Assembly: GCA_021413585.1 (NCBI GenBank) | Contig: JAIOQB010000260.1 | Coordinates: 1-50,016, forward strand | Length of the DNA stretch: 50,016 nt | Direction of reading: 5' to 3' | Origin: Planctomycetia bacterium | GTDB taxonomy: Bacteria > Planctomycetota > Planctomycetia > Pirellulales > UBA7805 | In this document: positions 32,202 through 32,426 of the stretch, in pieces | Position numbering within the stretch: position 1 is the stretch's first letter | How the letters are laid out: each line of letters starts with the position of its first letter | Translations under genes and position numbers: made by a program | Notes under the pieces: model-generated | What the model was told of the DNA's origin: nothing | What the model saw: the letters and a program-made list of their open reading frames with translations, nothing else | Database searches by the model: none

Positions 32202-32426
32202 ATGGTTTTGCGCATTGAATCGCCCGTTCTGCACATCCGCTTCGATGGCCGCAGCTTCGACATTCCGCTTTCCGACCTGGACGTCGGCGCGCTGTCGAGC
32301 GACGTGGACATCAAGCGCGCTCTGGCCGGCTACCTCAACGTGCCGGAAGTGAAGTTCCGCGACTACACCGTCGATCGCCACGAGACGGGCAACCTCACGG
32401 TGCGCCCGGAGGCGGTGTTTGGTTGA
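32202..32426 (+). CDS. 74-aa beta-grasp/ubiquitin-like protein candidate ending in C-terminal Gly
   Basis: MVLRIESPVLHIRFDGRSFDIPLSDLDVGALSSDVDIKRALAGYLNVPEVKFRDYTVDRHETGNLTVRPEAVFG; alternating beta/alpha pattern parallels ubiquitin (beta1-beta2-helix-...-terminal strand-G); first gene of the + strand cluster containing E1 and JAB genes. Confidence 0.45.
   Translation: MVLRIESPVLHIRFDGRSFDIPLSDLDVGALSSDVDIKRALAGYLNVPEVKFRDYTVDRHETGNLTVRPEAVFG

Follow-up and report, generated by a model that had tools for sequence, protein, structure and literature searches.

A ubiquitin-like protein with an aromatic-Gly tail encoded beside a minimal E1, a divergent Ro60-like protein and Y-RNA-like genes in Planctomycetia and other bacteria

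Introduction

To our knowledge, all known bacterial systems that conjugate ubiquitin-like (Ubl) proteins, which have been accepted only recently and comprise CBASS Cap2/Cap3, Bil and Bub, are directed at proteins or at phage. The Bil (types I and II), Bub (6E/DUF6527) and type II CBASS (cyclic-oligonucleotide-based antiphage signaling system; Cap2/Cap3) systems combine a modifier ending in Gly with an E1 and a JAB-type peptidase, and they are spread patchily and horizontally (PMC11601603, PMC11601596, PMC10557695). The SAMP/UbaA/HvJAMM1 and TtuB/TtuC/JAMM systems use a small single-domain beta-grasp modifier, a minimal ThiF/MoeB-type E1 and a JAMM peptidase, with no E2 or E3, and are linked to tRNA biology. 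The known Ro60/Y RNA systems include the Salmonella rsr-yrlBA-rtcBA operon, the Deinococcus Rsr/Y RNA/PNPase particle and the Ro60 proteins of mycobacteriophages (PMC4201824, PMC7790460); in the bacterial Rsr-Y RNA systems a Ro60-type protein is encoded beside several Y RNAs, at least one of which contains a tRNA-like module, and the 5' and 3' ends of the RNA form a protein-binding stem. Here we describe a locus that shares features with each of these. It lies in a 50,016-nucleotide stretch (the window) of contig JAIOQB010000260.1, assembly GCA_021413585.1, from a Planctomycetia bacterium, where a 74-codon Ubl gene at 32202-32426 on the forward strand heads an operon encoding a minimal E1, a JAB peptidase, a divergent Ro60-like protein and Y-RNA-like genes.

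The window operon resembles Bil, Bub and CBASS in its Gly-ended modifier, E1 and JAB-type peptidase and in a patchy distribution with horizontal spread, but it has no detectable E2 (Prok-E2, BilB, BubB or Cap2 E2 domain), CD-NTase or DUF6527, and its partner genes are RNA-centred; because the defining E2 was sought and not found, the cluster is not to be filed under these systems. The closest mechanistic analogues appear to be SAMP/UbaA/JAMM1 and TtuB/TtuC, with which the window shares the features listed above, but its modifier ends in an aromatic residue and Gly instead of Gly-Gly, has no sequence homology to ThiS/MoaD-type Ubls and is not accompanied by sulfur-transfer partners, whereas the SAMP and TtuB systems have none of the Ro60-like protein, the Y-like RNAs and the tandem oligonucleotide/oligosaccharide-binding (OB)-fold protein with an invariant Cys (the OB/Cys protein) that are conserved here. 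Set against the Rsr systems, the Ro60-like protein of the window is highly divergent, Y-like RNAs occur at 3-8 per array and in at least three subtypes, and no RtcB or RtcA Pfam match is present in the window operon; the linkage to RNA-repair genes seen in Rsr systems is shared by one related locus, which carries an RNA ligase. In Atg8 and Atg12, too, the mature tail ends in Phe-Gly or Trp-Gly once a peptidase has acted, and a non-canonical E1 activates it, but this is a resemblance only. These proteins have no sequence relationship to the window Ubl, their E2s are Atg3 and Atg10, and their target is a lipid or Atg5. We know of no bacterial Ro60 system that has previously been tied to a protein modifier. 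In the accessible literature, which included PMC7159879, PMC7824862, PMC1779556, PMC4201824 and PMC11601603, we found no description of a link between a Ubl, E1 or JAB protein and Ro60 or Y RNA, although a prior mention cannot be excluded. The system can be regarded as a prokaryotic Ubl-E1-JAB variant whose coupling to a Ro60-like protein and Y RNAs, if functional, would be a new connection.

Results

A conserved 74-codon gene encodes a protein with an aromatic-Gly terminus

The Ubl open reading frame (ORF) begins with ATG, runs for 74 codons to a TGA and ends in ...RPEAVFG-stop (translation MVLRIESPVLHIRFDGRSFDIPLSDLDVGALSSDVDIKRALAGYLNVPEVKFRDYTVDRHETGNLTVRPEAVFG). It is preceded by a GGAGG ribosome-binding site at 32192-32196, 5 nt 5' of the ATG, and the identical protein is present in NCBI from a Planctomycetia metagenome-assembled genome (MAG), labelled as a hypothetical protein. 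The window is GC-rich and crowded with long spurious ORFs on both strands, which is what would be expected if this frame too were open by chance and not a gene, and conservation was therefore taken as the real test. A word-indexed search for close homologs returned 421 proteins at E<=0.01, of which the best 120 are 77-100% identical, and searching 1.84 billion representatives of 50%-identity clusters in full with a HMMER profile added 391 further clusters at E<=1e-3. The homologs number in the hundreds, with HMMER E-values reaching 1e-41; the protein is conserved over its whole length, and its length, start context, stop position and synteny are kept across phyla. The database homologs, the profile clusters and the position of the tail in loci that also carry the E1 refute the chance-frame reading, to which we attach practically no credence. 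The gene is real, and it is the founding member of an unannotated, new family with a conserved terminal Gly. A first-pass annotation, made from the sequence alone, had placed a 74-amino-acid ORF at the head of a cluster at exactly this position and strand, and the ORF, the ribosome-binding site and the homologs bear this out.

The same annotation had drawn attention to the C-terminal Gly, and orthologs from several phyla retain it. AVFG-stop is the end of 111 of the 120 closest homologs, while 8 run 1-9 residues past the Gly. Among 150 diverse representatives of the family (P numbers below), the stop codon directly follows [FYW]-Gly in 93, with Phe as the penultimate residue in 74, Tyr in 18 and Trp in 1; a further 29 have [FYW]-Gly followed by 1-215 extra residues, so that the aromatic-Gly pair is kept in 122 of 150 overall, and of the 28 left over, most show a truncation or a frameshift. 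At 54 of the 55 loci with both a Ubl and an E1 gene, the Ubl ORF halts exactly after the aromatic-Gly. The extended and fused forms (the 29 representatives above, P0149 among them, and locus L030) make up the precursor pattern that a need to expose a free Gly would predict; in P0050, for example, the natural extended form reads ...AVFG-SGHAA.

The predicted fold of the Ubl is a beta-grasp, as the first-pass annotation had anticipated, and residues 71-74 have a predicted local distance difference test score (pLDDT) of ~55, that is, they form a flexible tail. The likeness to ubiquitin, ThiS and MoaD is at the level of fold only. When the family was compared by hhalign with the sequences of ubiquitin and MoaD, the probabilities were 5.6% and 0.3%, neither being significant, though the non-significant ubiquitin alignment pairs the equivalent segment of strand 2 and helix 1. 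No Pfam or NCBIfam match was found for the Ubl or 75 family members, nor a PADLOC match for the Ubl, and a PDB profile search with the family returned only the ribosomal protein uL23 at E 0.03-0.5, which is non-significant. Fold likeness with no link at the sequence level therefore leads us to read the Ubl as a new beta-grasp family that bears the Ubl hallmark of a flexible tail with a fixed Gly. Thus the parallel once drawn with ThiS/MoaD and BilA/BubA stands for fold and terminal Gly, and falls for sequence homology and for a cluster of the Bil or Bub type.

The operon is conserved across phyla

Related loci (L numbers) come from a scan of one genome per species, which located 96; 80 of these were retrieved. 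Gene content was counted in the 53 loci whose sequence continues for at least 7 kb past the 3' end of the Ubl gene, with hidden Markov models derived from the window proteins and their homologs in related loci and run on all locus ORFs. The Ro60-like protein is encoded in 50 loci, the OB/Cys protein in 50, the E1 in 48 and all three together in 48, and the order is nearly always Ubl - Ro60-like - OB/Cys - (JAB) - E1. This conservation, computed directly, extends over at least seven phyla, with loci from Planctomycetota, Chloroflexota, Desulfobacterales, Armatimonadota, Abditibacteriota, Obscuribacterales/Cyanobacteria, Patescibacteria and others, and each of the large proteins has more than 1000-2000 homologs. 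In Dolichospermum flos-aquae CCAP 1403/13F the operon lies on a 69-kb plasmid, pAfl69 (NZ_CP051207.1; loci L085-L087). There, two inserted genes, one for a HEPN protein and a neighbouring hypothetical one, separate the Ro60-like gene from the OB/Cys gene, and the Ro60-like gene crosses the origin of the record and hence is missing from the gene table. Kovacikia minuta has the operon as well, the complete genome of Abditibacteriota IAD-21 has it twice, and it was also found on four IMG/VR contigs.

A minimal E1, an optional JAB peptidase and a tandem-OB protein

The E1 gene (38251-38901, forward strand) encodes a minimal ThiF/MoeB-type adenylating enzyme (ThiF PF00899, E 1e-29) that keeps the GxGxxG, DxD...N..Q and DN..R nucleotide-binding and adenylation motifs. 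Its start is probably 38251, giving 216 aa, as the orthologous gene in L088 is called at 216 aa, whereas residue numbers here follow the 233-aa ORF starting at 38200. Cys184 (GDVCEYPLARN) is invariant in 48 of 48 orthologs, and at 216 aa the protein has no rhodanese domain. Its PDB matches are generic (the ThiF-type 9egc, MccB, Uba4, Uba1, NAE and MoeB), and in PADLOC it matches Cap2-type E1-E2 models over the E1 part alone. MccB is its second-best PDB match (E 1.6e-8) and PaaA is matched as well, which might suggest that the E1 is MccB/PaaA-like and that the 74-aa product is the precursor of a modified, possibly toxic peptide-nucleotide or heterocycle. We find this very improbable: MccB chemistry needs a C-terminal Asn where this family has Gly, the product is a folded beta-grasp domain conserved throughout and not a short leader/core peptide, and the six window operon proteins contain no export or immunity domain by Pfam.

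The JAB/JAMM metallopeptidase gene (37818-38261, forward strand; start codon uncertain) matches Prok-JAB at E 2e-11 and has an intact HxHx7Sx2D motif (H63, H65, S73, D76). Its best NCBIfam match is the desampylase family (E 4e-12), and Pyrococcus furiosus JAMM1 is among its best PDB matches (E 8e-6). A JAB gene is present in 29 of the 53 loci (~55%). The E1 and JAB genes thus lie downstream of the Ubl gene on the same strand, as the first-pass annotation had said, and their motifs, like the gene, fold and terminal Gly of the Ubl, were computed directly; taken together, the fold, the Gly and the linked E1 and JAB motifs support the reading of the 74-aa protein as a Ubl-type modifier.

The OB/Cys protein (36832-37848, forward strand, 338 aa) belongs to a family without a name and has no Pfam match; its start at 36832 agrees with the NCBI gene call. 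Its N-terminal helix is followed by tandem OB-fold barrels and then, after a disordered linker rich in Arg, by a small alpha/beta domain at the C-terminus, in which Cys289, within the conserved loop AGICLSGxDxxFDLxSLVGV, is invariant. The topology of the C-terminal domain, alpha-beta-beta-beta-loop(Cys)-alpha, suits a minimal UBC fold and a double-stranded RNA-binding domain equally; no E2 was matched by profile with this domain or among the listed whole-model fold matches, and no window operon protein has a Prok-E2, UQ_con or DUF6527 match. A natural fusion of OB/Cys and ThiF exists (P0387, 553 aa), and because of this fusion and the position of the gene directly 5' of the JAB or E1 gene, we infer that the OB/Cys protein is the best candidate for a transfer factor that substitutes for an E2, for an RNA-guided specificity factor, or for both. 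It is also a candidate RNA-binding component.

The second protein-coding gene of the operon encodes a Ro60-like protein

The gene at 33499-35124 (forward strand) encodes a divergent protein of 541 aa with N-terminal helical repeats and a C-terminal von Willebrand factor A (vWA) domain containing a DxSxS metal ion-dependent adhesion site (MIDAS) motif. In a PDB search with a family profile of 44 members, the five best matches were all Ro60/TROVE/Rsr proteins, with human Ro60 first (9nen, E 1.3e-4) and two proteins with a TROVE domain, the Xenopus Ro60 and the Rsr of Deinococcus completing the set (9l5y, 9kop, 1yvp and 2nvo); E-values run from 1.3e-4 to 0.05, and human Ro60 aligns colinearly with the family across the final helical repeats plus the vWA domain. 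The Pfam family vWA_Ro60 is matched by 25 of the 44 members, in every case below the Pfam cutoff, and it is the only Pfam family recorded among at least 2261 homologs, every source name shown for them being 'hypothetical protein'. The window protein has no TROVE (PF05731) match, and a single-sequence PDB search with it returned no Ro60, the family profile alone reaching Ro60. This profile-level relationship was computed directly, and because it is joined by adjacent Y-like RNAs, the best reading of the 541-aa protein, though a tentative one, is a divergent Ro60 orthologue.

The Ubl and Ro60-like genes not only adjoin but are in places fused: a Ubl-Ro60-like in-frame fusion is encoded at 9965-11779 of L030, from a Chloroflexia MAG, and P0149 (291 aa) is a Ubl-vWA fusion. 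In addition, an accessory vWA+helix-turn-helix (HTH) protein of ~260 aa, with a DxTGS MIDAS and a C-terminal HTH, is encoded next to the Ro60-like gene in ~15 related operons (L002 10893-11834, L008 11481-12356, L018 8965-9852, L034 11851-12864, L082 9787-10542 and ~10 more), though not in the window. Beta-grasp domains include the RNA-binding TGS domains (PMC1779556). These observations, together with the weak uL23 profile likeness (E 0.03-0.5), would fit a Ubl that acts non-covalently, as a beta-grasp adaptor or RNA-binding subunit of a TGS-like kind or as a vWA/MIDAS ligand whose C-terminus docks, for example by placing its carboxylate on the MIDAS, while the E1 acts elsewhere. Such a role seems unlikely to us, as a Gly fixed at the stop on a flexible tail is the hallmark of an E1 substrate, the E1 gene accompanies the Ubl in 48 of 53 loci with no other plausible substrate in the operon, the JAB protein and the extensions past the Gly imply processing to a free Gly, and the uL23 matches are non-significant.

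Y-RNA-like genes lie within the operon

Between the Ubl gene and the next ORF, ~1.07 kb without an ORF holds five Y-RNA-like genes, all on the forward strand. Rfam finds two YrlA matches in this gap, both below gathering (E 9e-6 and 2e-3). By repeat analysis the gap consists of five tandem units, each opening with ...CCCAAC-N-AGC-N-TACAAAC, and four of the five close with a GCTTTTGCGACTYG motif. The outermost bases of the units pair, with compensatory changes between units (CCCGUAC/GUACGGG, CGCGUGC/GCACGCG, GCCCGCAC/GUGCGGGC and GUUUGC/GCAAAC). A covariance model of our own, R1, was built from 24 orthologous Y-like units from 20 related loci and the window; among these 24 aligned units, double compensatory changes occur in 13 of 30 pairs, mostly in the T-arm and acceptor-like stems. 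R1 detects six units in the window, and against the 33 tRNAs of the window it gives one marginal partial match only, which argues that it is not simply detecting tRNAs. At a threshold of E<0.01 in related loci, there are 259 R1 matches to Y-like RNAs in 70 of the 79 loci searched, mostly on the operon strand and in the interval between the Ubl and Ro60-like genes, 5' of the OB/Cys gene, or past the E1 gene.

Gene 1 (32636-32790) and its paralog gene 3 (33013-33167) are YrlA-like. The former has a sub-threshold Rfam YrlA match of 36 bits (E 9e-6), 156 bits with R1 and support from folding, and the latter has 28 bits with Rfam YrlA and 140 bits with R1. In both units the 5' and 3' ends form a terminal stem around a permuted tRNA-like module of T arm, closed acceptor-like stem and D arm, which is the architecture described for YrlA (PMC4201824). 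Gene 2 (32841-32994) represents a second subtype, with 47.5 bits and E 3e-11 with R1, the shared 5' and 3' motifs, a terminal stem with compensatory changes and orthologs in L001, L002, L009 and L016. A third subtype is represented by gene 4 (33233-33366; R1 70.7 bits, fold z-score -4.7) and is conserved in L001, L002, L003, L008, L009, L015 and L016. Gene 5 (33378-33472) is short and a weaker call, with the CCCAAC...TACAAAC motif, 24.6 bits with R1 (E 1.8e-5 with filters off) and a fold z-score of -1.7. The sixth unit is a minimal Y-RNA-like gene at 36722-36804 (forward strand), in the interval between an AAA+ gene and the OB/Cys gene (R1 53.7 bits, E 9e-13; fold z-score -5.6), which consists of a stem, an internal loop, a stem and a small hairpin followed by a U-run. 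Equivalent units lie 5' of the OB/Cys gene in L001, L002, L003, L005, L006, L008, L014, L018, L025, L035, L036, L039 and L044. The Y-like RNAs, too, were computed directly.

Two other structured elements flank the Ubl gene. A strong terminator-like hairpin at 31990-32029 (forward strand), with a 14-bp stem followed by TTTGTTT, lies ~170 nt 5' of the Ubl start in a divergent intergenic region, and no forward-strand gene is evident 5' of it; the equivalent position 5' of the Ubl gene holds a Y-like RNA in many related loci. On the other side, a long inverted repeat at 32440-32512 (forward strand; GCTGTCAGC...GCTGACAGC) starts 14 nt past the Ubl stop and is followed by an A-run and not a T-run; it may be an element for processing or stability at the junction of the Ubl mRNA with the first Y-like RNA.

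tRNA arrays and variable genes

A tRNA array of 33 genes (ARAGORN) occupies 16590-23048 (forward strand) of the window, separated from the operon by ~9 kb that include glycoside-hydrolase-like and other genes. In L008 (Bythopirellula), a 35-tRNA array (4076-9892) stops ~110 nt 5' of the Ubl gene, and it opens like the window array, with Phe-Glu-Pro-Ile-Lys-Ile(tat)-Lys-Thr-Gly. Arrays of 10-27 tRNAs adjoin or interrupt the operon in L001 (1488-3367), L039 (6601-9964), L047 (10358-11547) and L082 (12541-16030), and 1-2 tRNAs stand beside the Ubl gene or among Y-like RNAs in ~12 further loci. Because related loci join array and operon, L008 with the same opening run, the window array is probably a displaced upstream part of the same ancestral island as the operon. 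Ro60-encoding mycobacteriophages also carry large tRNA sets, which the arrays here would echo.

This setting, an operon amid T-arm-bearing tRNA-like RNAs and often tRNA arrays, brings up the possibility that the Ubl is a sulfur carrier of the ThiS/MoaD/TtuB/SAMP2/Urm1 type, whose terminal Gly, adenylated by the E1, would become a thiocarboxylate that serves to thiolate the nearby tRNAs or Y RNAs, with conjugation absent or secondary. A minimal ThiF-type E1 with a conserved Cys would suit this role, as would a JAB that is matched best in NCBIfam by the desampylases, and for TtuB and SAMP2 tRNA thiolation and conjugation go together. However, known carriers, like ubiquitin, all end in Gly-Gly, whereas 122 of 150 representatives here have [FYW]-Gly; the six window operon proteins have no Pfam match to a PP-loop thiolase (TtuA/Ncs6), rhodanese, cysteine desulfurase, ThiG/ThiH, MoaE or CysM (relatives' proteins were not scanned), and the four core families conserved in the relatives are those of the window; the E1 has no rhodanese domain; and the fusions of the Ubl to vWA and Ro60-like proteins suit a protein-directed role better. 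On balance we regard a sulfur carrier as improbable.

Two other neighbours were considered as possible parts of the system. The gene at 35240-36718 (forward strand) encodes a classical-clade AAA+ ATPase of 492 aa with a hydrophobic N-terminal segment (PF00004, E 3e-18; NCBIfam FtsH/PAN/CDC48/Mpa). A core role, by analogy to MoxR-vWA pairs or to a proteasomal ATPase, was rejected: none of the 87 related loci carries a homolog, and the gene is absent also from L088, the closest long relative (88% Ubl identity), so that it appears to be a lineage-specific insertion. In L082, an IMG/VR contig, an RNA ligase (7208-7867; PF09414, E 1e-25) lies directly 5' of the Ubl gene, with a WGR/ligase-like protein nearby (1621-3084). 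The ligase was rejected as a regular neighbour of the operon, being found in L082 only, though it would fit an RNA-repair context there. Elsewhere in the window, the ORF at 41161-46524 (forward strand, 1787 aa) is highly repetitive and Asn/Gly/Ser/Thr-rich, with internal duplicated blocks of several hundred residues, and resembles a very large repeat protein of the secreted or surface-displayed kind.

Discussion

The evidence taken as a whole suggests that the Ubl is probably a modifier activated by the E1, its attachment being reversible by the JAB peptidase where one is present, and that it acts on or with a Ro60-like/Y-RNA particle. From motifs and gene linkage we infer adenylation, a thioester relay and protein conjugation, as well as the target and the biological role, along the following route. 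The minimal ThiF-type E1 would adenylate Gly74 of the Ubl, which would probably then be held on Cys184 of the E1 as a thioester and be transferred to an amine of the target, either directly or through the OB/Cys protein, whose Cys289 would do the work of an E2. Conjugation that is independent of an E2 has precedents in archaeal sampylation and in Thermus TtuB. Where it is encoded, the JAB protein would trim precursors and fusions of the Ubl after the Gly and would remove conjugates. Because the Ubl, E1 and OB/Cys proteins are inherited together with the Ro60-like protein and the RNAs, the Ubl would most likely tag or regulate the Ro60/Y-RNA particle, its partners or its clients, the last of these perhaps selected by RNA, and the whole may serve as a horizontally mobile module for RNA surveillance, RNA repair or conflict.

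Three considerations weigh against this proposal. The Ro60 assignment is built on profile matches at E 1e-4 and on sub-threshold Pfam matches; in bacteria, ThiF-type E1s that work with a small beta-grasp partner take part in sulfur transfer more often than in conjugation; and the JAB gene is absent from ~45% of the loci, so that reversibility is not universal.

A broader interpretation, which we offer tentatively, is that the locus exemplifies an undescribed and widespread bacterial module, in which a Ubl apparatus (an aromatic-Gly Ubl, a minimal E1, an optional JAB and an OB/Cys protein as substitute for an E2) is locked genetically to a Ro60-like protein, to multi-gene Y RNA arrays and, in the ancestral state, to near-complete tRNA arrays, such that tagging by the Ubl controls, or is directed by, an RNA-surveillance ribonucleoprotein. 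If this were so, the Ubl could mark proteins bound to damaged RNA or stalled translation factors, or it could switch the Ro60-like particle on and off; in its boldest version, the Ubl would be attached to an RNA-bound client chosen by the Y RNAs.

Ro60 and the Y RNAs have long been studied for their involvement in the autoimmunity of lupus and Sjogren syndrome. If true, the proposal would provide the first direct bacterial link between Ubl signaling and Ro60/Y RNA biology, and the cultured carriers, Dolichospermum with pAfl69, Kovacikia minuta and Abditibacteriota IAD-21, make the system directly testable. At least three subtypes of Y RNA, plus several unannotated protein families, are missed by current Rfam and Pfam models. 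Study of this family could reveal a new conjugation mechanism, E2-independent or guided by an OB domain, and could show what connects the quality control of RNA with the tagging of proteins; it could also explain why complete tRNA arrays accompany modules of this kind, perhaps as an island that keeps translation and RNA repair in reserve against tRNA-targeting toxins or phage.

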